A program made the translations under genes and the position numbers. From a bacterium (GTDB lineage: Bacteria; Bacteroidota; Ignavibacteria; UBA10030), in assembly GCA_043803945.1 (NCBI GenBank), contig JAZDJN010000048.1, positions 1 through 64,000 of the forward strand: a stretch of DNA of 64,000 bases, in the 5' to 3' direction. Shown piece after piece: positions 7,706-22,292 of this stretch; the stretch's first letter is position 1; every line of letters begins with the position of its first letter. The notes under the pieces were generated by a model, which saw only the letters and a list, made by a program, of their open reading frames with translations, did no database searches and was not told the DNA's origin.

Positions 7706-8965
7706 TCAGGCGGATTTTCGTTCCTCGTAGAGATAGATCGGCTCTTTTGACTTTATAATGGTTTCCTTGGTGATGATACATTTCGAGACATTCTGCCGGG
7801 AGGGCAATTGATACATAATATCGAGCATGATATCTTCGATGATGGAACGAAGTGCGCGAGCACCTGTTCCCCGCATCATCGCCCTCTCAACAACCGATTT
7901 CAGCGCCGCCGGCTCAAACTCGAGATCAACACCTTCCATCATAAACAATTTCTTGAACTGTTTCACCAGAGCGTTCCGCGGCTCGGTCATGATATTCAGG
8001 AGAGCTGACTCGTTCAGAGAATGCAGTGAGGTAATAACGGGCAGGCGGCCGATAAATTCCGGAATCAATCCGTACTTCAACAGGTCATCGGGCTCAACCT
8101 GTTCAAGGTAGACGTCCACCATCTGTCCTTTTTTCTCTCTGATGTCCGCTCCAAATCCCATTGGATTCTGACTGACCCGGCGCTCGATAATTTTGTCGAT
8201 CCCTTCAAAGGCACCGCCGCAAATGAACAGGATATTTCGTGTATTAATATTGATCAGACTCTGTTCCGGATGCTTCCGTCCTCCTTTGGGTGGAACACCG
8301 GCGACCGTCCCCTCGAGAATTTTCAGCAGGGCCTGCTGAACACCTTCACCCGAAACATCTCTCGTAATGGAGGCGCTGTCGCTCTTCCTTGTAATCTTAT
8401 CAATTTCATCGATGTAAACAATGCCCCGTTCGGCTTTCTCAATATTGTATTCGGCATTTTGCAGCAGGTACACAAGAATCGTCTCGACATCATCGCCGAC
8501 ATATCCCGCTTCCGTCAATGTTGTGGCATCGGCGATGGCGAAAGGAACATCGAGGATACGTGCCAGCGTTTGGGCAAGGAGGGTCTTGCCGGTCCCTGTG
8601 GGACCAAGGAGCAAGATGTTGCTTTTTTCGATCTCCACTTCATCGAGGTTGTGAAACTGATCACGGGACTCGAGGCGTTTGTAATGGTTGTAGACGGCAA
8701 CGGCGAGCGAGCGCTTCGCATGCTCCTGCCCAATCACATATTCATCAAGGGCTTTCTTTATCTCAATCGGGGTAAGGGTGCCGCGCGCAGCATGCTTCTT
8801 TGCGCTGATGGCGGCCATGTTGTTCTTGATGATATCGATTGAACTCGAAACACACAGATCACAAATGTACACATCCGGGCCGGCGATAATACTGCTCACC
8901 TCTTCTGAGGATCGGCCGCAGAAGGAACACGCGATTTTATCCCCTTGTCTCGATTTTTGACTCAT
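7706..8965 (-). CDS. clpX: ATP-dependent Clp protease ATP-binding subunit
   Basis: N-terminal CSFC..CDLC zinc finger, [19 protein letters not shown]. Confidence 0.98.
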
Positions 8966-8989
8966 ACGATTCCCCTGATCTTCATCCCG

Positions 8990-9625
8990 TTATTTCTTAG
9001 CCTCGATAATCCGTTTTACAAGAATATTATCGATGAGACCGTATTCCTTTGCTTCCTGAGAGGAAAGATAGTAGTCACGGTCAGTATCTGTTTCAACCTG
9101 CTGAACACTCTTGCCGGTGTGGAACGCGAGAATCTCATTGATGCGCTTTTTCGTTTTGAGGATCTCTTCCGCCTGTATGCTGATGTCGGATGCAGTCCCT
9201 TGCACACCACCCCACGGCTGGTGGATCATCACACGCGAGTTTGGAAGCGCAGTTCGTTTGCCTTGCGCACCGCCTCCCAGCAGCACTGCAGCCATGCTTG
9301 CTGCCATGCCGATGCAGATTGTGGAAACGTCAGGCCGAATGTACTGCATCGTATCATAAACCGCAAGGCCCGAGGTGACACTGCCGCCGGGACTGTTGAT
9401 ATAGAGATGGATGTCCTTATCGGGATCTTCCGATTCAAGAAACAAAAGCTGGGCAATGGTCAAACTGGCGATGGTATCGTCAATGGCTGTCCCCAGAAAT
9501 ACAATGCGCTCTTTTAAGAGGCGTGAGTAGATATCGTATGCGCGCTCTCCTCGGCCCGTCTGTTCAACAACCATCGGTACGAGTTGATTGTATAATTCGA
9601 ATTTCCCTGCCTTCATCTTCTTCAC
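8990..9625 (-). CDS. clpP: Clp protease proteolytic subunit
   Basis: [28 protein letters not shown]. Confidence 0.98.
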
Positions 9626-10914
9626 GATCCTTCCTCAAGCGTATTATTCAGTGTGGAGTCGTCGATTTCAGTAATGGTTGCATTCTTTACCAGCAATTCC
9701 ATTAATACATCGCTGACCAATCGATTCTTGATGTGGTCAGACGATTTATAGTAGTTGATTAATCGTTCTTTATCAATACCGATCTTCGGTGCTTCCCGTT
9801 CCGCCAGAGTGACCAGGGCATCCTCGCTGGGTGTAAGATTTTCTTTGGCGATAATCTCCTCACGGAGCAAAGCCCATTTGGATTGGTAAATTGCGTAAGT
9901 GCGGTTCTGTTCAAAAAATTTCTCCTTGTTGAAATCGGGAGGAAATTGCTTATTGGGCTGTTGATTTTTGACATCCTCCAGCAGGTTTTCCAGAACGCTG
10001 CGGGTGAGTGACTCGGGGATCTGGAAATCGTGCATGCGAATCAACTCGCCGATCACACTATTCGTCACGCTCCTGCGGTTCTTTTCTTTCCAGTACGCAT
10101 TAATGTCCTCGCGGATACTGCTTTGGAATTCATCGATCGTTTTGATTTTTTCCTTCGTCACCGTTAGCGCGAAAGCATCATCGAGTGGAGGGAGAAGAAC
10201 TTTGTCCACTTTCTTCACAAATGCTTTAACGTCGACCTTATGGGTGCGTTCGCCATGCTGATGTTCAAATTGAATTCGCAGCTCCTGATTCTTCTCCGCC
10301 GATTTCAAGGCATCCTTGAAGGGTTGTTCGAGCTTCGGATCTGCCAGGTAGAACCGGACATTATCGTTCTTCTTACCGATGATCGGTATTCCCGTATCAT
10401 CCAGGTCCTGAAGGTCGACGGTCACAATAAATTCAGCATCTGTCACGCGATCCGCTTCTTCGGTCGTACTATTGGCACGCTGCAACCTCAGCAGTTCATC
10501 CTCAACCTCAGACTCTTTCATCGTATGAACGACGGTTTCCAGCTTCAGGCCCTTGTATTCTTTGAGCTCGATAGTGGGGCGTACGTCATACTGGATCTTG
10601 AAGCGGAAGAATTCCCCCCGTTTGTAACTCCTATCGACAAGTGTCGGTTCGCCAATGGGCTTGAGCTCCTTATCCTTGATCGCCTGCCGATAAAGTTCGC
10701 CGGCAACCTTATCGAGAGATTCCTCCTCAATCATGTCGCCATAGAATTTTTTTATCAGCTCCAATGGGGCTTTGCCCTTCCGAAAGCCTTTTAATTCAAC
10801 CTTCGGTCTATATTCCTTGTAAGCCTTTTCGAAATGTGGTGTCAGCTCTGCGGCATTTGCCTGAATCTCTACTTCGCATGACACCTCCGATATGGTGTTG
10901 ACAGTAATCTCCAA
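9622..10914 (-). CDS. tig: Trigger factor
   Basis: GFRKGKAP ribosome-binding motif; TTG start at 10914 with AGGAG RBS; conserved tig-clpP-clpX order. Confidence 0.95.
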
Positions 10915-10941
10915 CGATGTACTCCTAAGTATGTATAATGG

Positions 10942-10969
10942 AAAAAGGCAGCCTCCATAGGGAGGATGC
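10942..10969 (-). terminator. Terminator-like hairpin after tRNA-Leu
   Basis: GCATCCTCC-CTAT-GGAGGCTGC (one mismatch) followed by CTTTTT on the minus strand. Confidence 0.55.
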
Positions 10970-10990
10970 AAGGCAATACTGTTGCCGTTG

Positions 10991-11072
10991 TGGGCGGAGG
11001 GGGAGTTGAACCCCCACGGGTTACCCCACTAGCTCCTAAGGCTAGCGCGTCTGCCAGTTTCGCCATCCACCC
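10991..11072 (-). tRNA. tRNA-Leu (anticodon TAG), intact, CCA not encoded
   Basis: Acceptor stem GGGTGGA/TCCGCCC, anticodon arm CTAGC-CTTAGGA-GCTAG, long variable arm, T arm GGGGG-TTCAACT-CCCCC. Confidence 0.96.
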
Positions 11073-11077
11073 GTGAA
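11006..11077 (-). repeat. att direct repeat overlapping the intact tRNA (tig-proximal junction)
   Basis: Identical to 17589-17660 except 11023 A vs 17606 T. Confidence 0.93.
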
Positions 11078-11093
11078 AAATAATCAAAAAACG

Positions 11094-11121
11094 TATATAA
11101 AAAAGGGGGACTCAATAGCAA
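11094..11121 (-). promoter_or_regulatory. Candidate element-borne promoter for the intact tRNA
   Basis: TTGCTA-16 nt-TATATA about 20 nt upstream of the tRNA 5' end; imperfect consensus. Confidence 0.4.
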
Positions 11122-11345
11122 ATCTATTAGCAATGAGTTCCCGTCCGATACTAATGGAATGCCCCTCACACTCATTCCGGCCTTCCGTTGCCTTGCAGTA
11201 TGTGAAGGGCACTCACACTTGTTGCTTTCGGAAGTTTTGAATGATAAACTGCGCTGCAAATATACACAACAATGCTGGCCATTGCAAGATAATGATTCCA
11301 GGTTACCTCGTTCCTCTGTGCGTGCAGAACTTTTTCGCTACCACT

Positions 11346-11630
11346 TCACCAAAGCCCCTGTATCGTGCCTTTCCAATATTCGATTGCCCTCGAAACATTC
11401 TCCTGATAGAATGTTTCCTCTTCCGGTTCAAGGGGGTCAAACTCTTCCGGCCCGCGTGTCTTTTCGTAACAAGGAAACATAAATTCAAGTTCACCGTGAA
11501 AAGAACTCGGATCCGTGCCCGTCTTTTTTAGATACAACCCATAAATTCGACCGGCAACCTCTGGAGTGCATGGGGGCAAATTCACCGGGATAGCCCTCTC
11601 AAGATTCTCAACTCTTTGCTTAATGTTCAT
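11346..11630 (-). CDS. Hypothetical element protein
   Basis: ATG 11630 with AGGGA RBS, overlaps the upstream gene; last gene of the operon. Confidence 0.7.
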   Translation of the reverse strand: MNIKQRVENLERAIPVNLPPCTPEVAGRIYGLYLKKTGTDPSSFHGELEFMFPCYEKTRGPEEFDPLEPEEETFYQENVSRAIEYWKGTIQGLW

Positions 11631-11880
11631 ATCGTTCCCTTGCTGTTGTTTCAAGTTTTTCTATTCGCTCTTCAAGCTCTGTTACTTCGAGAGCCTTTAT
11701 AAGCATCGAAGCCATCATCACACGCTTATAGAATGTATTATCCCCCCCTCCCTGCTCAGCTCTTCGAATACAGGAAGAAATATACCGGCAAACATCCCTT
11801 GCGCTTTTCAAGCGAATTCGCTGCCGGGGCTTTGGTAGATGCTCTGATGTTGCTTTCTTCCGTTCTTTTTTAGATGCCAT
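11620..11880 (-). CDS. Small helical element protein (C-terminal ELEERIEKLE coiled coil)
   Basis: Operonic, AAGG RBS-like sequence; motif reminiscent of small proteins in integrated elements; function unknown. Confidence 0.75.
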   Translation of the reverse strand: MASKKERKKATSEHLPKPRQRIRLKSARDVCRYISSCIRRAEQGGGDNTFYKRVMMASMLIKALEVTELEERIEKLETTARERYEH

Positions 11881-11915
11881 TTTCTACCTTTAAGCTATCA
11901 ATAATTGCCTTTTAC

Positions 11916-12845
11916 TTATGCAAATATTGCACCCTGTTGCATTGCTTCACTTGCCCTCACCTTGAAGCTGATTTCTTGTGTGAGATTTTTCCCTGTGTGT
12001 GAGAGCATCTCTGCTCGCTCAGATTCTGAGAGATACGGTGCAAGGCCTGCTATTCGGATATACTCAACCCCGGAATCTACTTCTGTTTTGAATTCATCTA
12101 TCATCACTAAAATCTTTTCGATGCCCGCAACCTTGCTCTGGATTTCTTCCAGCTTCTCATTGCCCTTGAATGAGTTTACTATCTCGTTGATACCGGCAAT
12201 TAAACCCTTCTGTGTTTCGCTTGGCTTAGGTTGCCCGCTTATATCTCTTGGAATATTTGAAAGGATGTTTTCTATGAGGGTGAAAGCAAAATCATTTCTT
12301 CCAAGATCAAAAGCGTTTTGAATTGCTTTTGTGATTGCCTCCGAAGTATGAGGAGTAGAGAGAAAGAGGAGGGCTGAATTGACTTGAGCTTCTCCCATAG
12401 CTTGAAGGGTTGTATCACCGTTCGTGAGGTTTGGATATTTAACCTTTTGGCTATTTCGAAGAAGATTCTTTTTCTCATTCAAGATGTTTGTTGCTAATGA
12501 ATTCACCTTCGACTTGTATGCCTCAACGGTTGAACTCTTTGCCTTTTTAATTTCCTCGCTCTGATAATCGGCTGTGTAGTTTTGGAAATTCCTGTTCTCC
12601 TTACTGAGCCTGGCAGGAATGCCTTGCATTTCTCTGTTGAATGAATTGCGAAGCTCTGCGAGTGATTTTATATTTGTGTTCATAAAACCTCCATTGAAAT
12701 GAATTGATGTATTGATTAGGGTTTGGTTTTTGATTCTTTGAATTCTATTGAGTTGTTGATACTCATCAAACGACAATTCTCCCATAGTGAACAAATCATA
12801 GAGCTGTTCGGGATCATCAATATCTAACCTTGTTGAGTAGTTCAT
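11916..12845 (-). CDS. Hypothetical alpha-helical element protein
   Basis: 309-aa ORF; second start at ATG 12683 with GGAGG RBS. Confidence 0.75.
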   Translation of the reverse strand: MNYSTRLDIDDPEQLYDLFTMGELSFDEYQQLNRIQRIKNQTLINTSIHFNGGFMNTNIKSLAELRNSFNREMQGIPARLSKENRNFQNYTADYQSEEIKKAKSSTVEAYKSKVNSLATNILNEKKNLLRNSQKVKYPNLTNGDTTLQAMGEAQVNSALLFLSTPHTSEAITKAIQNAFDLGRNDFAFTLIENILSNIPRDISGQPKPSETQKGLIAGINEIVNSFKGNEKLEEIQSKVAGIEKILVMIDEFKTEVDSGVEYIRIAGLAPYLSESERAEMLSHTGKNLTQEISFKVRASEAMQQGAIFA

Positions 12846-13275
12846 CTTCGAGATAGAAATGTTTGATTGAGATTCTTTTAATATCTTGTAAAGGAATTAT
12901 TTTCATGAGACTTGCATCATAATCGCCACCGGCCTTTACCTTGCCACATTCGAAACACAACCTTATGAGATCTACGGTATTCATCTCATAGCACTGGATA
13001 CCGTTTCCATCTGGAACAAGATGTAACCATTTAGAAGCCTCCGTTTCGAGTATTCCCGTTGCTTTGTTTCTTCGAGTATCCCAATACTCTATGGCTGCGT
13101 TTAGTGTTGAACGTGCCATAGAATCAAATTTTATCTCCCAGGTGCTACCATCGGAAAAGCGAATGTCCCACTTCGGAGCGAAGCCAATGCTCACCGTTGA
13201 TGCACCATGCTCACCTTCGAAATACCGGGCAATAATACACTGTAAAATATCCGCTGATGTAAATTGACTACGCAT
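12817..13275 (-). CDS. Putative PD-(D/E)xK-type nuclease
   Basis: WDI...WEIKFD motif followed by N..IEY; overlaps both neighbours. Confidence 0.55.
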   Translation of the reverse strand: MRSQFTSADILQCIIARYFEGEHGASTVSIGFAPKWDIRFSDGSTWEIKFDSMARSTLNAAIEYWDTRRNKATGILETEASKWLHLVPDGNGIQCYEMNTVDLIRLCFECGKVKAGGDYDASLMKIIPLQDIKRISIKHFYLEDELLNKVRY

Positions 13276-13636
13276 GACAAGTGCAAACCTTAAAAGTGTC
13301 ATCTACCAACTTACCGCAATCACAACAAATGTACGAACGGAGCCACCAAGCTCGCTGGCGTAATTCCTGGAGACGCTCTTCCGTCAACGGATTGCCATTT
13401 TCATCTGTAGCTTTTCTAGAATTTGACACGTTTGCAGTTTCAGATTTATTGAACGGTGCACTAACCTCCAGGCTCTTCTTCAAATATTGCATTGGATGAA
13501 GAACAGATGGAGTGAGCTTCGATGCAATTTTATGAACCGTTGCCTTGCCGTATGTCTCAATAAATTCCGTTAAAGCTTTGAGGTCATCGGCAGCGAGGGT
13601 TTTTTGTGTGTTCGTCTGAATAATGTTAACTAACAT
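13268..13636 (-). CDS. Hypothetical protein with C-terminal Cys cluster (CCDC..CTC)
   Basis: 122-aa ORF overlapping the DUF4373 gene end; possible Zn ribbon. Confidence 0.65.
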   Translation of the reverse strand: MLVNIIQTNTQKTLAADDLKALTEFIETYGKATVHKIASKLTPSVLHPMQYLKKSLEVSAPFNKSETANVSNSRKATDENGNPLTEERLQELRQRAWWLRSYICCDCGKLVDDTFKVCTCHA

Positions 13637-14210
13637 TCTTCACCTGCAAGGAATTCATGATGGTGGCAATGTGGAGCGGTTCGTTTGTTCTTCGAAGAGA
13701 ATTAATATCAACATCAACGCTTCTGTCTGTTGTTTGATTTTCCTTTTCTGTTTTGTTTGATGTTGTTTGATTTTCTTTTCTTTCCTTTTCTTTTATTTCC
13801 TCCGTTTCTGTGGTGGTTTCTGCGTTTGAAACTCGTTTCGAGTAGGAAATACGGGCGTTTTCTCGTTTTCCGGTTACCGCTTTCTTCCTTCGTTCTGTAC
13901 CCAATGAAAAAATAACTCGTTTTAATGTGTACTTTCTCTCGTTAAAAAGGTGAAGTGATAGACAAAGTTTGAGTATCGAATTGAACTCTTCGGGCGTCAA
14001 TCCGAGGAAGGCAGAGAGAACATCAATTGAATTTCCATTCGAAAGATCTAAGCGACAACCGGGTGAACGGTAGATTCTTTCGAGCATAGCAAAATAAAAA
14101 CCGTAACCCTTCAAGCCGTAGATGGAGCGAAGTGCAAGTATCTTATCATCGGTGAGTGCATCGCAATCATGCGGGAAATAATCTAATCCGTTTTTTCGTG
14201 GTCGTGCCAT
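13626..14210 (-). CDS. DUF4373 / Lin1244-like phage replication initiator-type protein
   Basis: N-terminus MARPRKNGLDYFPHD...YGLKGYGFYFAMLERIY; GAGG RBS. Confidence 0.8.
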   Translation of the reverse strand: MARPRKNGLDYFPHDCDALTDDKILALRSIYGLKGYGFYFAMLERIYRSPGCRLDLSNGNSIDVLSAFLGLTPEEFNSILKLCLSLHLFNERKYTLKRVIFSLGTERRKKAVTGKRENARISYSKRVSNAETTTETEEIKEKERKENQTTSNKTEKENQTTDRSVDVDINSLRRTNEPLHIATIMNSLQVKNVS

Positions 14211-14225
14211 TTAACCCTCAAAATG

Positions 14226-14339
14226 AAAAAGCCGAGAAGAAGGAAACGGAGTAGAAACCTTCTTCCCGGCTGAATGTTGAAATTATATTTTGAATGATTT
14301 CCAATACTTGCTCCGTTATTTTAGCCAGAGTAAGTATTG
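14226..14339 (-). promoter_or_regulatory. Structured leader with terminator hairpin upstream of the DUF4373 operon
   Basis: Hairpin 14231-14270 followed by TTTTT; second hairpin 14302-14339; AACGGAG/CTCCGTT complementarity between them. Confidence 0.6.
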
Positions 14340-14352
14340 CATTCTCTATGCC

Positions 14353-14452
14353 ATTCGGAGTGGCAATAAAAAACCCCTAGAAAAATCAGGGGTTATATAT
14401 CTCCGAATAAAACTATTTCGGAACGTGCAAACTCCGAATAATATTATTCGGA
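14353..14452. promoter_or_regulatory. Operator-like palindromes built on TCCGAA half-sites
   Basis: Perfect 20-bp palindrome TCCGAATAATATTATTCGGA (14433-14452), imperfect copy 14402-14422, lone half-site 14353-14360. Confidence 0.65.
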
Positions 14453-14454
14453 AT

Positions 14455-15228
14455 TCATTTTCGCCTTAATTTTCTTACCCATAATTGATGTTGTTCTGCA
14501 TGTATTTTAGCTGTGTCTGGATCAATATGAAACCTTTTTCCAATTTGAGACCAATTTGGCTCGCCATTTGGTAACTTCAATTCATTGATTGCGCGCTGGA
14601 GTTGTGTTTTATCTGTAAGTATGGGAGGCCTTCCTAATCTTTTAATTGGAATTTCCGGTTTGGCTCTACTCTTATACTTCTGAGATTCTAATATCCGCTC
14701 TAATTCGATTTTGTTTTCTCTTTCTTCATTGTAGAACCCTTTCAGCTTATCAAGTGCTCGCTGCGCAGCCCTATAATTATCGCTCGGTATTAAATCTTCC
14801 TGCTTAATGAATTCTATAAAGTTGCTCATTCCTTCACTACGAGCTTTTGATGCAGTCTCAAATAATATATTAGCGTAACTTGAAAATATATTGATGATTA
14901 TTGAAGCATTCTTCGTTGAGAATGGTACAGATTCCAAAAGGATGCTCATTTGAATGAATATCGTTCTCCATTTATCGATAATCCAAGCTTCAGCTTTTTT
15001 AATTCCTCCATGTTTTAATTCTTTTTGAAATTCCCTGTTTCTTGGTACGCCCAAAGCATCAGCCCAAACATTGAGAATATCCTTCTCTAATTTGGTTAGA
15101 AGATCTTTGGTTGTTTTGATCCCGCTGAGATAATTTTCAATTTCTCTTTTACCATGTATGACAGGAGTATTTATTATCCATTTGCTTCGTGCAAGTATTT
15201 TCCATGAATCCATCTTTTTATCGGCCAT
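14455..15228 (-). CDS. Hypothetical protein with C-terminal helix-turn-helix
   Basis: GRPP followed by NWSQIGKRFHIDPDTAK HTH-like segment; TAATG coupling to the upstream gene. Confidence 0.7.
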   Translation of the reverse strand: MADKKMDSWKILARSKWIINTPVIHGKREIENYLSGIKTTKDLLTKLEKDILNVWADALGVPRNREFQKELKHGGIKKAEAWIIDKWRTIFIQMSILLESVPFSTKNASIIINIFSSYANILFETASKARSEGMSNFIEFIKQEDLIPSDNYRAAQRALDKLKGFYNEERENKIELERILESQKYKSRAKPEIPIKRLGRPPILTDKTQLQRAINELKLPNGEPNWSQIGKRFHIDPDTAKIHAEQHQLWVRKLRRK

Positions 15229-16274
15229 TACATTTCTCCAAAATATTTGTAATTATTTGGTAATATCAAGTTACAGCCGATACCATTTTGAAGTAAATGA
15301 ATGAGCGATTGAGGAGAATTATATCTTTCACCATTCACTTTTGAAGCTATTTCACCCGCTGTTCCCCAATATTTACCATTTACATGCCCGCGAACCATAT
15401 TTAATATTCTTCCATCAGTAGTCTTCCCCTTTATAGCTCCGGGACCATTCGCTTGATAGAATTCTCTATGTGTTGTAGTGCTTTGGCCTTGCGCACTCAA
15501 GCTGCCATCCTCTAGAAAATAAAGACATGGATTAAATGTTCCGAACGAAACGGTTACTGACAAAGTATCTTTGAAAGTATAGGTCATATTGAACGTATAG
15601 GTATATCCCTGATAATGAAAAGTTGTGGATAGTTTTTGGCTGTCATTAATCTTCCAAAGATTTTTCATATATGGTATTGGTATATCAAACATTATTCTAG
15701 ATTCGCCATGGGGGGTAAAACCACAATAACCATTTTCGTTATAGTAATATAAATCCCCACCATTGATCTCCATAACAATGTATCTATACCCGGATATTGT
15801 CTCGTATCGCTTAAATTTCTCCCATGAATTATCAGACCATGTCTTTGTATATAAGCTGTCAAATGTTTGACCATACGCACGTATATCAATGGGTGGTCTA
15901 GAGTTCTTGATAGTCACTGAAATTAAGCTTGAAGAACCAATGTTGTTCATAGCATCATAAGCTAATACGAAGATAGTATGTACACTATTATCTGCCAATT
16001 CAGGGAAATACCATTTATATTCCCACGGACTGAGTGCTCTACTAAGTCTTAGATCACCGTCGATATAGAACTCCACTTTCTCAACCTTAATATTATCTCT
16101 TACATCAACAATAATTGTTATCGAATCTGAAATAACTTGATTGTAGTAGGGAGAGACTACGGAAACGTTTGGGGGAGATTTATCTGTTGTGTCTACTGGA
16201 TTACTCTTTTCAGAATTGCAGTTCAGACATAACACGGCAAATAATGCAATCGCATAGATTATAAAAGATTTCAT
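15228..16274 (-). CDS. Putative lipoprotein with bacterial Ig-like domain (element cargo)
   Basis: Signal peptide ending at Cys (LCLNC); DKSPPNVSVVSP...VEKVEFYIDG...HTIFVLAYDAMNNIG Ig-like pattern; GGGGGA RBS. Confidence 0.82.
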   Translation of the reverse strand: MKSFIIYAIALFAVLCLNCNSEKSNPVDTTDKSPPNVSVVSPYYNQVISDSITIIVDVRDNIKVEKVEFYIDGDLRLSRALSPWEYKWYFPELADNSVHTIFVLAYDAMNNIGSSSLISVTIKNSRPPIDIRAYGQTFDSLYTKTWSDNSWEKFKRYETISGYRYIVMEINGGDLYYYNENGYCGFTPHGESRIMFDIPIPYMKNLWKINDSQKLSTTFHYQGYTYTFNMTYTFKDTLSVTVSFGTFNPCLYFLEDGSLSAQGQSTTTHREFYQANGPGAIKGKTTDGRILNMVRGHVNGKYWGTAGEIASKVNGERYNSPQSLIHLLQNGIGCNLILPNNYKYFGEM

Positions 16275-16406
16275 TTCAATCCCCCTTCCTGTAATCCGTT
16301 AAGCACAAAATCCTCTTTCATCGCTCGTCACGAATTCAGAGGTTTCCTCATTCACCACGTCCGTCCCTTCACCCTGAAAACGCCGTGGAATAATTTTGCT
16401 TGCTTT

Positions 16407-16435
16407 AACTTAGCCATTAACTATTCATCTGTCAA
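16407..16435 (-). promoter_or_regulatory. Sigma70-type promoter for the lipoprotein-HTH operon
   Basis: TTGACA-17 nt-TAAGTT. Confidence 0.6.
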
Positions 16436-16505
16436 GTATGCATGGGATAGCCTGTATTTACACCATATTCCTTCCATATATCGCTTATAGGGAAAGATCT
16501 CACCC

Positions 16506-17531
16506 TCAGTTGAGTTCTATGTGTAACCTGTTCACTGTTTTGTGTAGCTCGCTCGCTGCCAGGTGAGAATAAATTTGAGTAACCGCTATGCTGCTATGGC
16601 CTAATAACTTTTGAATCTCGTATATTGGCACTCCGTCCTGAACGAGCCACGTTGCAAATGTATGCCTCAATGAATGGAAATGTAAACGCTTGTCAATCAA
16701 TTTTGCCGAAATGACAGCATCCTTAAAAGCATGTGTAAGCCAGTCCTCACTTATTTTTTGTCCATTCAAAAGGAATACATACTCACCATAAACTTTGCTG
16801 CACTTCGAATGCAATAAATATATTGCGGTCTCGCTTAATGGTATTACTCTTCGTTTGCCTTGCTTTGTTCTGAATGTAGGATTGCTTTGAACTGTGATAA
16901 CCTTCCGTGGTAAGTCAACATCGCTCCAACGTAAGTTTATTATCTCGCCCCTGCGCAATCCGGTCAATGTGGCAAAGAGCACAACCTCCCTGAGGCATTG
17001 TTCTTTAATGATGTTCATCAATTTCTGAAAATCGTCACGGGTAAAGAAAATCGGAGTCTGTTCCGGCACCATCACAAGCTTGAGCCCGGAGAAGGGATTT
17101 TTTTCAATGAGATTCCAACGCAATGCGGTATTGAGAAAAGCTCGAAGTGTCCGCAGCTCAATGTTTACAGTGACCGGTGAAATTGCCTCTAATCGTTTGA
17201 TGCGGTATAAATCGAAATGTTTTGCGGTGACCTTCGAGAGGGGTATATTTCCTGTCACCACTAAAAAATGATTGAGGGCTAACTCATAGAGGTATACCGT
17301 TCCGGGTGAATAGTTTCCCCTGGCATATTGGAGAAACTCACGAATGAATTGTTCTAAATTTTTGGGGATTTGTTTTGCACGGAGCAAAGTCTCAAACTCA
17401 GTGAGGGCTCGGAGTGCCTCTCGTTTGTGAGTTTGTCCGGTGGATTTCCAACGGATCTTACCCTCATCGGTAAAGAGGATATACCAAAATCCGTTTGAAC
17501 GCTTGAAGAGTGAAAGCTTGCTGATGGCCAT
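16506..17531 (-). CDS. Tyrosine recombinase/integrase with N-terminal arm-binding-like domain
   Basis: TGLRRGEI, HSLRH, LGHS and terminal Tyr (TQIY); ATG 17531 with AAAGGA RBS (ORF open from 17567). Confidence 0.95.
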   Translation of the reverse strand: MAISKLSLFKRSNGFWYILFTDEGKIRWKSTGQTHKREALRALTEFETLLRAKQIPKNLEQFIREFLQYARGNYSPGTVYLYELALNHFLVVTGNIPLSKVTAKHFDLYRIKRLEAISPVTVNIELRTLRAFLNTALRWNLIEKNPFSGLKLVMVPEQTPIFFTRDDFQKLMNIIKEQCLREVVLFATLTGLRRGEIINLRWSDVDLPRKVITVQSNPTFRTKQGKRRVIPLSETAIYLLHSKCSKVYGEYVFLLNGQKISEDWLTHAFKDAVISAKLIDKRLHFHSLRHTFATWLVQDGVPIYEIQKLLGHSSIAVTQIYSHLAASELHKTVNRLHIELN

Positions 17532-17588
17532 TGCTAACATCCTTTCTATTAGCAATTCCATTAGCATTCGGAAGGAATCTTAAATTTT

Positions 17589-17660
17589 TTGAACCCCCAC
17601 GGGTTTCCCCACTAGCTCCTAAGGCTAGCGCGTCTGCCAGTTTCGCCATCCACCCGTGAA
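17589..17660 (-). pseudogene. 3'-truncated tRNA-Leu copy (integrase-proximal att junction)
   Basis: First 67 nt of the tRNA plus 5 nt of leader; breaks off in the T loop (GGGGGTTCAA then AAAATTTA). Confidence 0.92.
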
Positions 17661-17667
17661 TGTAAAG

Positions 17668-17706
17668 AAAAATCCTCAGCGTCCAATCGACTTGAGGATT
17701 TTTTTT
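17668..17706. terminator. Terminator-like hairpin just upstream of the truncated tRNA
   Basis: AAAAATCCTCA...TGAGGATTTTT inverted repeat with T-tracts on both strands. Confidence 0.55.
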
Positions 17707-17778
17707 GGCCGGAAAATATATAAAGAATTGACGCAAAAACAAAGAGTTGAGGCAAATTGAGGCCGGTTGTCTGGGATG

Positions 17779-19695
17779 CTACCTCGCCTGCTTCTGAATT
17801 TCATTCAACTTTTGGAGAAAATCGACAGCATCCTGCCGGAGTGGATCGATGGCAATTGCCTTGTTGAAATATTCCCGTGCTTTCTGATAATCCTTCCCTG
17901 TCTGGTAAGCCAGCCCGAGTTGGATATTGGTCAGATAACTCTTCGAATTTAATTCGAGCGCCCGTAGGAAATGCTCGATCGCATGGACGGGATCGCCATC
18001 TCCCATATATCCAAATCCGAGGTTAATGTTAATTTCCCAGTAGTCATTGCCGCGGAGAAGAGCTTCCGACAGGACCTCGATCATTGGTTTGTAATTGCCG
18101 CCTTTGCGATAGAGCGTGAACGCTTCACGGTATGCACTGAGGTACATCGTATCGGCCAGATACGCCTGCTGAAAAAAAGTCAATGCACGGATGGGATCGT
18201 TCGCCTGCGCATAATATTTTCCAAGGGAGTACAAACTATATGCAAATCCAGGTGCTAGAGTAATGCTCTGCCGATATTTTTCCTGTGCCGCTTCATTGTT
18301 CCCTATGCGTGCAGCTTCACCCGCTTCACTCAACAGCTTCAGAATATCGGGGGGGATTTTTTTCTCCCGGATATCCATGAGAACCCGAAGGAAATCGAAT
18401 CGCTCAGATAATTCCGGTTCGTACGAGCTGGTGAAGATCTTTATAATTTCCTGACGTGCTGCTGGAAAATCGCCTGCATAGAAATCACTCACCGTTTTCA
18501 GCATAGAATAATAGGGCAGAGGGAAGGTTGAATCCTTCTGGACGTTCGCGAGAAATGGATCGGGAAAGATTGCCTGCCGGTTGCGAAGCCGTTGGTTTGC
18601 AAGCTGCAGGAAGGTGTAATAGGATTCTGATACTTCGTACTTTGTCAATTGTGTCTGAAGTTCTGCGGGGAGAACCGGCTTCCACGCTGCCGTCGTATCG
18701 GAGAAATTGAGAGAGGAGAATGCATGAGCAAGAGCCTCAATCATATAGTGATAGACGTAACTGGGCTTCTGACCGATACGGGCATCGATGATCCATTGAA
18801 CATTTTCATTGTCAAGTGCACGTTTAAGGGAGTCGCGGGTCAATCCCGTTTTTCTTATTGCTTCGTTTGCCTGATCGATGATTGCCTTGACACTGCCTTC
18901 CGACTCAGAGATTCGTAACAGAGGGATGGGAAGAGAATCCACCACGAATTGAAACACCGGGCGGAAGAGATCGACCTGCGCAATTTTCTCCTTGAGCTTT
19001 ATGCTCTCGCTGGCAATCGTGGCTGTAAAGAATGCGGTATTCTCTTTGAGATATTCGGCAAAGCATGTTGTTCGCAAGTTCTGGATCGCTGCATACTGCG
19101 GAAAAATATCCAACTCAGGTTTCTTCAGAAGCTGTTCATAGTATCCCATGGCCTCTTTGTACTGTTTTGCGCCCATGGCTTTTTCCGCACTACTGAGAGT
19201 GGAAATCAGGAAAGAGTAGCCGGGCCATAACTCTTGCGGTACTTTAATTTCCCCCTGACTCTTTGCTTCGCCCAGTTGAAATTGAACAAGGAACAATTGA
19301 TGGATCTTGACATCCTTCGGAAAACCGATCAGGATGGAGGTGCGGTTGCTGTCGGTAACAATGTCGCCCTTGAAGGCGGCGCCTACAGTTTTTTCACTCT
19401 GGTAAAGAGTGAGTTTTGGAAGTTCTTCCTTGAGAAAATCAGGGTCCAGTTTCCAATCCCCGATTGAGCGGAAGATGAAATAGAAGTACTGGCCGTCATT
19501 CACATTCTCACTTGTTAAGGGAAATGTGCGGGATTGGTTGGAAAGATCGACCTGGGCGAATCGTTCCCCGCTCATTCCAAAAAGGCCGGACTTCTCCTTG
19601 ACTTTCAATTGCACAGATTGTGCCTGAGCAAGTACGGGAAGAATGGAAAAATAGATGATCAGAAAAGCGAGCGCAATTTTATTCGTGGTAACCAT
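17779..19695 (-). CDS. Exported tetratricopeptide-repeat protein
   Basis: Signal peptide after ATG 19695 (alternative 19719); several C-terminal TPR repeats such as LGLAYQTGKDYQKAREYFNKAIAIDP. Confidence 0.85.
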   Translation of the reverse strand: MVTTNKIALAFLIIYFSILPVLAQAQSVQLKVKEKSGLFGMSGERFAQVDLSNQSRTFPLTSENVNDGQYFYFIFRSIGDWKLDPDFLKEELPKLTLYQSEKTVGAAFKGDIVTDSNRTSILIGFPKDVKIHQLFLVQFQLGEAKSQGEIKVPQELWPGYSFLISTLSSAEKAMGAKQYKEAMGYYEQLLKKPELDIFPQYAAIQNLRTTCFAEYLKENTAFFTATIASESIKLKEKIAQVDLFRPVFQFVVDSLPIPLLRISESEGSVKAIIDQANEAIRKTGLTRDSLKRALDNENVQWIIDARIGQKPSYVYHYMIEALAHAFSSLNFSDTTAAWKPVLPAELQTQLTKYEVSESYYTFLQLANQRLRNRQAIFPDPFLANVQKDSTFPLPYYSMLKTVSDFYAGDFPAARQEIIKIFTSSYEPELSERFDFLRVLMDIREKKIPPDILKLLSEAGEAARIGNNEAAQEKYRQSITLAPGFAYSLYSLGKYYAQANDPIRALTFFQQAYLADTMYLSAYREAFTLYRKGGNYKPMIEVLSEALLRGNDYWEININLGFGYMGDGDPVHAIEHFLRALELNSKSYLTNIQLGLAYQTGKDYQKAREYFNKAIAIDPLRQDAVDFLQKLNEIQKQAR

Positions 19696-19892
19696 CGATT
19701 GTGCCTGGGCGGAGTTCATAGATTGGTAACTTTTACATTCTGTCGAAATATAGAGAATGCTCTGAGGAGAAGCAACAGATGCCTTCTCCTTGACATTCAA
19801 CTGGAAAATACCGAACATTCTACCAGCCCGATTGAGATATCGGGCGCAATATCCAACCAGCGATGCTGAAGAAGTCTGAAGGGGGACATACA

Positions 19893-22292
19893 ATGTGGCT
19901 GATCCGAGGAAATAGCCTGCTGATGCTCGTTGTGATTGTTTTGAATCTCACCCTAGCACAGCAAGAGAGTGTTCTTACAAACCAACTGTTCATTGAACGA
20001 ATAGGATCGCTCCCCTTATTTGCTCCCTCGCCCCGACTTGTTACGGCCAGTTCCGGACAGTTCCTTGCTCTTGCTTCACAAAAACAACTCAAGCTGATTG
20101 ATCTCGGTTCCTTTTCTGAATTCGCTTCGATAGACGGAATTCCACAACTCGTCACCAGTCTGAGTTTTTCAGCCGATGGTAAACAACTGTTTGTGGGTAA
20201 GGTTGATGGGCATATCACGATCTGGGACGTCTCCACCCGCAAGTGGCTTGAGGATTTTTCCATTCATTCATCAGCCGTTGTTTCTATAGGGATCTCATCA
20301 AAGAAGTTGGTACTCACTTCGTCGTTCGATAAAACCATGCGGCTGAGCGATCCAACGATGAAAAATGCAATTAAATCGATTTCAAGGTTTCCGTATCCCT
20401 GCGTTGGGTTTTACCTGAATCCAACGGAATCTGCACTCTCCGTTGTTCGAGAGAGCGAGATACGGATTTTCTCATTTCCAGCATTGGAAGATCTTGGCGT
20501 GCATTCTCTCCAGAGTACCATCACAGTCTCTGCGGTAAGCCCCCAGGGATCCACTATTGCCCTGGGCAGCACCGATGGCAAAGTTCACCTCTGGAATCTT
20601 GAATCAAAATCGGTGAAAAATGTTTTCAAGATTTCGAACGCAGCAATTACCGCTCTTGCTTTCGATAGCACGGGCAAATGGCTTGCATGCGGAACGCTCG
20701 ACAGTCTTCTCTCCATTATCACACCCGGTTCCGGCGCCACGCTTGGAAATAAAAGGGAAGAGAAGTGCTATTACACGTCGCTTACATTTAGCGGAGGCAA
20801 GTCCTTAGCGGCAGGCACCTCAACTGGACAGGTAGTACTCTGGAAGGTTCTCGAAGAACCGCCTGACAAGGATGCTCCGGTCATCGTGATCGCCGAACCG
20901 GAAATTCAGAATCGCTCAGTGTTAAAATTATTCGCCAAGGAAGTTTCTGTAAGCGGGCTCGTATCGGATAAAAGTATTGTGACCAGTATTTCGATCAAAG
21001 GATTTGATGGCCCCATGCAGATCACAGAAGCCGGGAAGGTTGAAGGGCCGCAGGGAAGTTTAACCGGCAAACGGTTCAGTGCTCAGGTGCCTTTGAAGAA
21101 AACCGGGTTGAATGAATTTGAAATTACAGCGACTGATCAATACGGTAACAGAAATTCGACTCCATTTGCCATCCAGAGACTCTCGAACGACGAAGCGTTG
21201 GAGATTCTCAGCCCGTTGCCGAACACAGAAACCGATAGCATTGCTGCACGGCTTCGATTCAGAACTTGGTTCGATGTTGAATCGTACCAGGTCATCGCCA
21301 ACATGCAGGAGATGATTACCAACCGTTCTCCGGTGAAATCCAATGGAGTATACAGCGATAAAATTCCTCTCGTAGTTGGCTACAATCAAATTCAGATCGT
21401 GGTGAAAAGCCTGACGGGAGAAAAATTTACACGGACGCTGGGTGTGACAAAAAAAGTGTTAGGGCCGCTCACGACACAAACAAACCGTGTTGAGAGTAAG
21501 GGGCGAACTTCGGAACCGCAAAAATGGGCTGTCATTGTCGGTGTCTCCGAATATCAGAATCGCGGTATTCCTTCACTAAAATATGCCGATCGTGATGCAC
21601 AGGCCTTCGCCGAATTTCTTCAAAAGCCGGAAGGCGGCGGGTACGAACCCAGCCATATGCGCATCCTTCTGAATAAGGATGCGACAGTGAGCAATCTCAA
21701 GGAGGCACTGCTCGATTTTCTTACACAGGCCATCGATAAGGATCTGGTGATGATCTACTTTGCCGGTCATGGCGCACCCGATCCGGCTCGCCCGCAGAAC
21801 CTGTACCTGCTCACCCACGATTCTGATCCAGCCAGGCTCGGACTCACCGCGTTTCCGATGTGGCAGATTGAAGATGTCCTCAAGCGCTACATTTCGGCCC
21901 GGCGCATCGTCGTTTTCTCCGATGCATGCCATAGCGGCGGCATCAGTGCCGACTTTGCCTCGCGGGGCCTCGATGTTACCAAGACTAATCTGATCAATCA
22001 ATTCATGGCCGACCTGTCGCGAACGAAGGAAGGAACGATTGTCTTCACTGCGAGCGCAGCGGGCGAGGTCTCACAGGAATTTTCGGAATTTAGCCACGGT
22101 GCGTTCACCTATTATTTGCTGGAGGGGATGAAAGGGGCTGCCGATTTCAATAACGATTATACAGTCACGATTAATGAACTCATGCAATACGTCGAAGATC
22201 AGGTTAAGCGGAAAACAAAGGGTGCACAAAATCCCACTCGCAGCCAGACGACGTACGATAAGGAACTAACGATTTCTCTCATTGCCCACTAA
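19893..22292 (+). CDS. Exported WD40 + Ig-like + caspase (peptidase C14) protein
   Basis: Signal peptide, WD40 repeats, KWAVIVGVSEY, FAGHG and DACHSG catalytic His/Cys. Confidence 0.92.
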   Translation: MWLIRGNSLLMLVVIVLNLTLAQQESVLTNQLFIERIGSLPLFAPSPRLVTASSGQFLALASQKQLKLIDLGSFSEFASIDGIPQLVTSLSFSADGKQLFVGKVDGHITIWDVSTRKWLEDFSIHSSAVVSIGISSKKLVLTSSFDKTMRLSDPTMKNAIKSISRFPYPCVGFYLNPTESALSVVRESEIRIFSFPALEDLGVHSLQSTITVSAVSPQGSTIALGSTDGKVHLWNLESKSVKNVFKISNAAITALAFDSTGKWLACGTLDSLLSIITPGSGATLGNKREEKCYYTSLTFSGGKSLAAGTSTGQVVLWKVLEEPPDKDAPVIVIAEPEIQNRSVLKLFAKEVSVSGLVSDKSIVTSISIKGFDGPMQITEAGKVEGPQGSLTGKRFSAQVPLKKTGLNEFEITATDQYGNRNSTPFAIQRLSNDEALEILSPLPNTETDSIAARLRFRTWFDVESYQVIANMQEMITNRSPVKSNGVYSDKIPLVVGYNQIQIVVKSLTGEKFTRTLGVTKKVLGPLTTQTNRVESKGRTSEPQKWAVIVGVSEYQNRGIPSLKYADRDAQAFAEFLQKPEGGGYEPSHMRILLNKDATVSNLKEALLDFLTQAIDKDLVMIYFAGHGAPDPARPQNLYLLTHDSDPARLGLTAFPMWQIEDVLKRYISARRIVVFSDACHSGGISADFASRGLDVTKTNLINQFMADLSRTKEGTIVFTASAAGEVSQEFSEFSHGAFTYYLLEGMKGAADFNNDYTVTINELMQYVEDQVKRKTKGAQNPTRSQTTYDKELTISLIAH

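Follow-up and report, generated by a model that had tools for sequence, protein, structure and literature searches.

Mobile elements that integrate into tRNA genes usually carry the 3′ part of the target on their attachment (att) site, attP, and the working gene keeps its host promoter. Of the 3919 islands counted in Table 1 of the Islander database, 3760 have a tDNA fragment from the 3′ end and 159 one from the 5′ end; the filters given in the same paper explicitly admit a 5′ fragment lying upstream, and its sublocations of tRNA attachment are the T loop and the anticodon loop (Hudson, Lau and Williams, 2015, PMC4383910). Here we describe a 6.58-kb element in the first 64,000 nucleotides (nt) of contig JAZDJN010000048.1 (assembly GCA_043803945.1; Ignavibacteria, UBA10030), a stretch referred to below as the window. 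With a probability of about 0.88, this element sits in the single-copy tRNA-Leu(UAG) gene by way of an attP that carries the 5′ part of the tRNA, with the host promoter now in front of the integrase gene and the working tRNA rebuilt at the far end. Such a reversed configuration is rare but already catalogued, and the locus is not new in kind; new are the host lineage, the target, the occurrence of both orientations and both sublocations within one integrase family, and examples of an attP with a captured target promoter.

The likeness to the 5′-fragment islands of Islander is close. An intact tRNA gene and its cognate end fragment lie in the same orientation on one replicon and bracket a tyrosine integrase, the predicted 6583 bp fall within the range of 2–200 kb, and the fragment is a 5′ piece on the upstream side that begins at tRNA base 1, preceded by five leader bases. 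Native upstream DNA stays with the fragment, and element DNA precedes the intact gene, as judged from synteny in relatives and a leader motif. The host lineage and the target, a Leu-UAG gene heading tig-clpP-clpX, differ from those islands, and while the sublocations are the same as in Islander, the restoring sequence here extends 5′ and not 3′. ICEclc, a large conjugative element at the 3′ end of a tRNA-Gly gene, has a promoter, Pcirc, at its far end that reads into the integrase gene only once the element is circular. The idea of a far-end promoter serving the integrase after circularisation is shared, whereas the candidate outward promoter described here would also serve the tRNA. Certain elements with archaeal hosts are reported to share the rare recombination on the 5′ side of tRNA genes, but both hosts and elements are archaeal.

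The insertion is bounded by a direct repeat of 72 nt, 71 of whose positions (99%) are identical and whose copies are spaced by 6583. The features on which the argument rests are as follows, all on the minus strand.

7706-10971, minus strand: host genes tig, clpP and clpX, which follow the intact tRNA; the true start of tig is near 10914 (Pfam)
10991-11072, minus strand: intact tRNA-Leu(UAG) (ARAGORN, Rfam, sequence)
11006-11077, minus strand: attR identity block, made of five leader bases and the tRNA as far as mid T loop (repeat search)
11078-17588, minus strand: element-unique DNA, 6511 bp (repeat search, G+C content)
17589-17660, minus strand: attL identity block, a displaced 5′ fragment of tRNA-Leu without the 3′ part, attached to native upstream DNA (repeat search, sequence)
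17672-17699, minus strand: conserved leader hairpin, ATCCTCA-N14-TGAGGAT plus a T run, -16.6 kcal/mol (motif search, folding)
17715-17742, minus strand: candidate for the native tRNA-Leu promoter, TTGTTT-N16-TATATT, facing the fragment and the integrase (position matches TTGCxT-N17-TATATT in relatives)
17779-19893, minus strand: host tetratricopeptide-repeat (TPR) protein, the native upstream neighbour of tRNA-Leu (Pfam, synteny)

In the window ARAGORN called a single tRNA, a minus-strand tRNA-Leu(tag) at 10990-11072, and Rfam matched tRNA-Leu at 10991-11072 (54 bits); neither program called the copy at 17589-17660 as a tRNA. Read on the minus strand, the repeat begins with the five leader bases TTCAC and runs from the first base of tRNA-Leu to GGGGGTTCAA, that is, through the 5′ strand of the T stem and the first five bases of the T loop, to linear position 67 of 83. 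The initial annotation, made from the sequence alone, had described a repeat from five leader bases to the T loop and a tRNA truncated at its 3′ end in the 17589-17660 copy; both descriptions hold, with the final 16 nt of tRNA-Leu missing from that copy. It had also given the gene order, which open reading frames (ORFs) and Pfam matches bear out: on the minus strand, the TPR gene is followed by the fragment, the integrase, seven or eight element ORFs, the intact tRNA and tig-clpP-clpX. One repeat copy together with the unique DNA makes a predicted circle of 6583 bp. The G+C content is 0.405 across the element (0.34-0.43 inside it) and 0.46-0.50 in the flanks.

The identity blocks end in the T loop, and strand exchange is for that reason placed at their 3′ edge, probably within the last few bases (GGTTCAA). 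With the crossover there, the element would have supplied bases 1-67 of the working tRNA, including the GTAA loop of its variable arm, and the host its last 16 nt. The copies differ at a single base in the loop of the variable arm, which reads GTAA in the intact gene and GAAA in the fragment; this mismatch was considered as a marker of the crossover and rejected, as relatives carry GTAA, GAAA or GCAA and the position does not discriminate. A search for a second Leu-TAG gene found none among the 47 tRNAs of the assembly, which is rated 100% complete, and no Leu-CAG gene was found among them either. Because it is the only Leu-TAG gene and no Leu-CAG gene accompanies it, tRNA-Leu(UAG) should be indispensable for reading CUA and CUG under standard wobble rules.

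Which side of the gene is native can be read from relatives. A query made of tig and the tRNA matched 39 of the 41 genomes searched (own genome included), and 19 loci from other genera or families were compared. The tRNA-Leu(TAG) gene adjoins tig in 18 of the 19, and in 12 the gene directly upstream of it encodes an orthologue of the TPR protein (45-56% identity, reaching the C-terminus). Eight loci carry TTGCxT-N17-TATATT upstream of tRNA-Leu and, a few bases on, the hairpin ATCCTCA-N(4-14)-TGAGGAT with a T run. The ATCCTCA..TGAGGAT motif occurs once in the 5.54-Mb genome studied here, at 17672-17699, preceded by TTGTTT-N16-TATATT, and the repeat with the tRNA fragment starts 11 nt after it. 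Two element ORFs that were tested had no match in the 19 tRNA-Leu loci of relatives. The synteny of TPR gene and hairpin in relatives, together with the drop in G+C content, therefore identifies 11078-17588 as an insertion into a native order of TPR gene, promoter with hairpin, tRNA-Leu and tig. The DNA from 17661 onwards is the native upstream side of tRNA-Leu: where element-free relatives might have shown upstream DNA of the 11078-11160 type, which would have told against the initial annotation, they carry the 17661+ type (TPR gene in 12 of 19, hairpin in eight of 19). Its claim that the intact tRNA has been split from a native promoter that now faces the integrase is likewise upheld, as topology, by this synteny; by the same topology, the intact gene cannot use its native promoter.

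The sequence of events that we propose follows from this arrangement. The element would have entered the single-copy tRNA-Leu(UAG) gene, at the head of tig-clpP-clpX, by recombination through an attP that held not the usual 3′ part of the tRNA but its 5′ part, extending from the five leader bases into the T loop. The host promoter, the leader hairpin and a dead 5′ fragment would thereby have been left directly before the integrase, while at the far end the working tRNA would join the element-borne 5′ sequence to the last 16 nt of the host gene.

The same evidence bears on two other accounts of the repeat. An ordinary island of the 3′ type could have been misread, with the native promoter at 11078 and beyond and the 17589-17660 copy a displaced piece downstream of another element. 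Base rates favour this account, given that 3760 of 3919 islands in the Islander table are of the 3′ type (PMC4383910), as does the position of other members of the integrase family behind an intact tRNA; but the fragment is a 5′ and not a 3′ part, the TPR gene, promoter and hairpin that stand upstream of tRNA-Leu in relatives lie here at 17661 and beyond, and the two element ORFs tested are missing from the loci of relatives, which together make it extremely improbable. Slightly less so, though still very improbable, is a repeat that arose in assembly or by a chance segmental duplication with no relation to the integrase. The genome is indeed a draft of 118 contigs, but the locus lies within an 88-kb contig, the copies differ by one base, their flanks are unrelated on both sides, and the order of fragment, integrase, cargo and tRNA recurs, with exact repeats of 39-117 nt, at seven other loci (in different genomes and one metagenome).

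That recurrence emerged from a survey of integrase homologues, which were collected from genome contigs (four loci), metagenome contigs (15 loci) and 401 genomes of the phylum, 37 of which gave matches at E <= 1e-40 in about 100 places. Flanks were examined for the best 20 of these roughly 100 places, and 31 integrase loci were classified in all; left out of the classification were L029, which is truncated and nearly duplicates L027, L076, which coincides with L021, L030-L040 (partial matches of 25-32%) and about 80 lower-scoring places. Eight of the 31 loci, the window included, have, 58-190 nt upstream of the integrase gene (int) and in the same orientation, a 5′ tRNA fragment; the intact tRNA follows the cargo at the far end.

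window: Leu-TAG, repeat of 72 nt, 6.6 kb
L026: Pro-TGG, repeat of 61 nt, 3.8 kb
L071: Arg-TCT, repeat of 56 nt, 14.8 kb
L072: Val-CAC, repeat of at least 55 nt (contig end), 8.6 kb
L073: Gln-CTG, repeat of 97 nt, 6.8 kb
L074: Gln-CTG, repeat of 117 nt, 7.2 kb
L086: Ala-CGC, repeat of 42 nt, 15.7 kb
L078: Arg-ACG, repeat of 39 nt, 63.5 kb

Four further loci, at contig ends, show the fragment alone: L075 and L046 (both Arg-TCT), L088 (Ala, two tandem fragments) and L045. These four calls are readings of the sequence made without a paired repeat, and the fragment of L045 is Leu-like by eye only, with no intact partner found in its genome. The reversed layout, first noticed at a single locus, is thus a habit of the integrase family, with both ends seen in eight cases and the fragment only in four. 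For Leu, Pro, Arg-TCT and Val the identity block stops in the T loop; for Gln, Ala and Arg-ACG it stops at the anticodon loop, on the 3′ edge.

The usual layout occurs in the same family. An intact tRNA stands directly before int in nine of the 31 loci (Pro-GGG twice, Glu-TTC four times, Asp, Leu-TAA and Phe), a 3′ piece in two (L053 and contig C103 of the same genome, at tRNA-Lys), nothing recognisable in six, and a convergent tRNA in two distant loci. Among the intact-type loci, L077 alone has a distal repeat, in which 14 nt from the 3′ end of the tRNA recur at +16.3 kb (E 0.008); none above noise was found for L021, L081, L082, L084, L085 and L087. We infer that the loci with an intact tRNA before int and no distal repeat are of the usual type. 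The 3′-type islands of the family (L077 at tRNA-Asp, C103 at tRNA-Lys) have integrases homologous to the one in the window (49-54% identity) and resemble it in that int lies just downstream of a tRNA-derived segment on the same strand, with short repeated motifs between att and int. They differ in that an intact tRNA or a 3′ piece precedes int, and the host promoter therefore keeps the working tRNA. In a maximum-likelihood tree, 5′-type and intact-type loci are interleaved, with many deep forks poorly supported; a Pro clade unites L027 (intact), L026 (5′ type) and L021 (intact) with support of 92/93. Pairs of closely related integrases (81-90% identity) belong to different elements, some at the same tRNA and some at different ones, which implies recent mobility in the family.

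To carry the 3′ end on attP and so keep the host promoter is, as this element from an uncultured lineage shows, customary but not compulsory: within one integrase family both layouts are in use, over nine tRNA isoacceptors, five in the usual layout and four more in the reversed one only. The eight att pairs provide material on the choice of crossover (T loop or anticodon loop) and on which arm holds the restoring sequence. For annotation, island finders that look for 3′ fragments only would miss such elements.

The remaining features of the element concern its genes and its candidate regulatory sites. Besides the integrase, all on the minus strand, it has ORFs of 348, 257, 194, 122, 161 and 309 amino acids (aa) and two small ORFs.

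16506-17531 (open frame back to 17567), minus strand: tyrosine integrase, 341 aa (PF00589, phrog_1)
15228-16274, minus strand: 348-aa ORF with a bacterial immunoglobulin-like domain, Big_7 (Pfam)
13626-14210, minus strand: replication-initiator-like protein with a Lin1244_N domain (PF14297, 2.5e-19; phrog_2562, 5.7e-35)
11916-12845, minus strand: 309-aa ORF, the sole cargo gene common to other 5′-type elements (L073 and L074, 24-26% identity)
17548-17566, minus strand: doublet ATGCTAAT-N3-TTGCTAAT, candidate arm-type integrase site between the fragment and the start of int (sequence)
11114-11133, minus strand: doublet TTGCTAAT-N4-TTGCTATT, candidate arm-type site of the opposite arm, lying 37-56 nt ahead of the attR block (sequence)
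11094-11121, minus strand: candidate proximal element promoter, TTGCTA-N16-TATATA, with the -10 ending 21 nt before the tRNA 5′ end
11259-11287, minus strand: candidate distal element promoter, TTGCAA-N17-TATATT, nine of 12 matches in a consensus scan, 186 nt upstream of the tRNA

The integrase probably starts at 17531, where an AAAGGA ribosome-binding site lies 8 nt upstream and the start agrees with the N-termini of homologues. It matches PF00589 at E 1e-38 (133.3 bits against a Pfam cut-off of 27.1) and phrog_1 at E 4e-79, and also has SAM-like N-terminal domains. Its frame is intact, and its translation shows LRRGE, HSLRHT, GHSS and IYSHL, which, by the order of these motifs, we take to be the catalytic R..HxxR..(H/W)..Y. 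The N-terminal ~120 residues of the replication-initiator-like protein share about 30% identity with phage replication initiators (from Bacteroides and Firmicutes phages) and with plasmid DUF4373 proteins; the protein also has one weak match to CARF (NCBIfam/PADLOC). One further ORF weakly matches phrog_13596, an unnamed family, and the remaining cargo ORFs had no Pfam, NCBIfam or PADLOC match. Neither virion structural nor packaging genes were found in the element with Pfam and PHROGs, which does not fit a prophage, and its nine ORFs include no relaxase, coupling protein or type IV secretion gene recognised by Pfam, PHROGs or NCBIfam, by which distant or novel relaxases could be missed. The element is best described as small and integrative, equipped with a replication module; neither a prophage nor an integrative and conjugative element is recognisable in it. 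The cargo of related 5′-type elements includes DnaB-like helicases and Rep-O-like, Eco57I-type methylase/restriction, SNF2/PLD, Mrr, RelB, Gp49/HTH and HNH proteins, and nearly all called ORFs are co-directional with int and the tRNA in the seven elements compared (the 63.5-kb L078 excluded).

In the integrated state, tRNA-Leu is probably transcribed from element DNA, as the topology suggests, by the proximal or the distal candidate promoter or by read-through from co-directional element genes. The proximal candidate has a geometry like that of tRNA promoters in the same genome; the last base of its -10 departs from the consensus, and it overlaps the second arm-type repeat. The distal candidate has the form of tRNA promoters both in relatives and in the same genome, where the clear cases read TTGnnn-N17-TATATT with the -10 ending 12-21 nt or 47-56 nt from the tRNA. 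The looser pattern TTGnnn-N16-18-TAnnnT is present within 200 nt upstream of 28 of the 47 tRNA genes, and in 266 of 2000 random 200-nt windows. The 57 nt between the fragment and the integrase start contain no promoter-like or terminator-like site, and in the integrated state the integrase is therefore positioned for transcription from the host promoter across the hairpin, a tRNA-then-int arrangement shared by the intact-type relatives. Expression of the integrase may thus come from the host tRNA promoter in the integrated state and from the element end (11078-11290) in the circular state. The doublets may be arm-type binding sites of the integrase: doublets of the same kind are present in L021, L026 and L027, L071 and L072 have doublets of their own sequence, and three of the five exact matches to TTGCTAWT in the window are arm doublet sites. 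The two Gln elements (L073 and L074) have identity blocks that include 58 and 78 nt of upstream DNA with TTGCCT-N17-TATATT, and weaker similarity extends past the block; they therefore carry a copy of the host tRNA promoter.

Downstream, too, the arrangement could matter. In five relatives tig starts 22-54 nt past tRNA-Leu, and in the window the consensus scan found no minus-strand promoter between tRNA-Leu and tig, where a terminator-like hairpin lies at 10952-10965. Co-transcription of tig with tRNA-Leu is plausible on these spacings. The sole tRNA that reads CUA and CUG is in any case physically severed from its conserved promoter and leader; as it is cut off from its own promoter, and as the chaperone/protease operon follows close behind in several relatives, imprecise loss of the tRNA-proximal end of the element should be costly.

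Several observations weigh against this account of expression and of the doublets. The consensus scan called neither the proximal nor the native promoter, and its 25 sites overall compare with 16.0 +/- 4.1 in shuffles. TTGCTAWT is not enriched in the window (five exact matches against 4.03 expected), and it is the placement of the doublets alone that is suggestive. Transcription from the host promoter could stop short of the integrase at the conserved hairpin and T run that precede the fragment, and the hairpin at 10952-10965 could insulate tig. Finally, L026, L072 and L086 have no obvious promoter at their tRNA-proximal ends; a dedicated promoter is therefore not a demonstrated trait of the family, and read-through from co-directional cargo is a live alternative.

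Some of these points also suit a reading in which the insertion is a genuine 5′-type event but has become a fixed, immobile remnant, the tRNA being transcribed by incidental read-through and the layout playing no part in the regulation of the integrase, the tRNA or tig-clpP-clpX. An excisionase-like gene was not recognised in the element by Pfam, PHROGs or NCBIfam, the cargo ORFs lie mostly outside known families, three related 5′-type elements have no clear end promoter, and terminator-like hairpins stand before the fragment and after the tRNA. The integrase frame, however, is intact and includes the catalytic motifs, the repeats are identical at 71 of 72 positions, the arm-type doublets are intact on both arms, and the 81-90% identical integrases in different elements imply recent mobility in the family. 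We hold a remnant to be unlikely, though by no means negligible. The preferred reading, an element that entered by a 5′-carrying attP and left its integrase behind the host promoter, lends itself to a wider and more speculative extension that we rate as an outside chance: the family would repeatedly switch the tRNA half on its attP, the 5′ type arising by capture of host upstream DNA including a promoter (as in the Gln elements), and here an essential single-copy tRNA, perhaps with tig-clpP-clpX, would be held hostage to transcription signals of the element in a form of addiction, while a strong host promoter was donated to the integrase.

Other observations concern the integrase family and its target sites. 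At C103 (1590-2965) the same genome has a second integrase, 54% identical, behind tRNA-Lys(ctt). Between that tRNA and int lie two copies of a 52-nt unit, 106 nt apart, which starts with the last 10 nt of the tRNA and points to a site of the 3′ type and a tandem scar. Contig C95 carries a third paralogue (37% identity), which has no tRNA in its vicinity. Fragments resembling the 5′ part of a tRNA lie directly upstream of intact tRNA-Thr(cgt) on contig C1 (~445-515) and of tRNA-Arg(tcg) on contig C27 (~1575-1640), and may be further scars of 5′-type events. Downstream of tRNA-Pro(TGG) in L026, at 13703-13995, a 110-nt unit that starts with the last 18 nt of the tRNA is present three times in tandem (90-99% identical); this array looks like 3′ fragments at the same gene. 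L025, a metagenome contig of 3994 nt with a terminal direct repeat of 123 nt, has a few small ORFs and an integrase gene whose product is 51% identical. The contig is probably a circle of 3871 bp and may be the free form of such an element; ARAGORN and Rfam found no tRNA piece in it.

The leader and the tRNA-Leu gene show peculiarities of their own in relatives. The leader upstream of tRNA-Leu(TAG)-tig is conserved across genera (L002, L003, L004, L006, L008, L009, L017, L020 and, on the minus strand, 17661-17745 of the window), with the hairpin within ~15 nt of the promoter and the tRNA 10-40 nt beyond the hairpin. This space is too small for a second promoter, and transcription of the tRNA must therefore pass the hairpin, which had no match to an Rfam family (10800-18000 scanned) and could be an attenuator or a small RNA. 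Upstream of tRNA-Leu in L003, a 28-nt leader and the first 27 nt of tRNA-Leu are duplicated, with a stretch of N between the copies; this may be another 5′-type insertion at tRNA-Leu in a relative. At six loci (L005, L011, L012, L013, L016 and L017) the intact tRNA-Leu(TAG) is flanked by pieces of another tRNA-Leu that is nearly identical to it: a 5′ piece, with ..GGCAGAC at its end, about 25 nt upstream, and the remainder 20-50 nt downstream, sometimes interrupted again in the T loop. The inserts are flanked by the GC-rich complementary sequences CTGCCCGCC and GGCGGG, and the pieces look like either a tRNA gene nested in a split tRNA gene or scars of repeated integrations.

Beyond the native neighbourhood of tRNA-Leu, at 19863-22292 on the plus strand and divergent from the TPR gene, the window encodes an 809-aa protein with a WD40 beta-propeller and a C-terminal caspase domain (Peptidase_C14).

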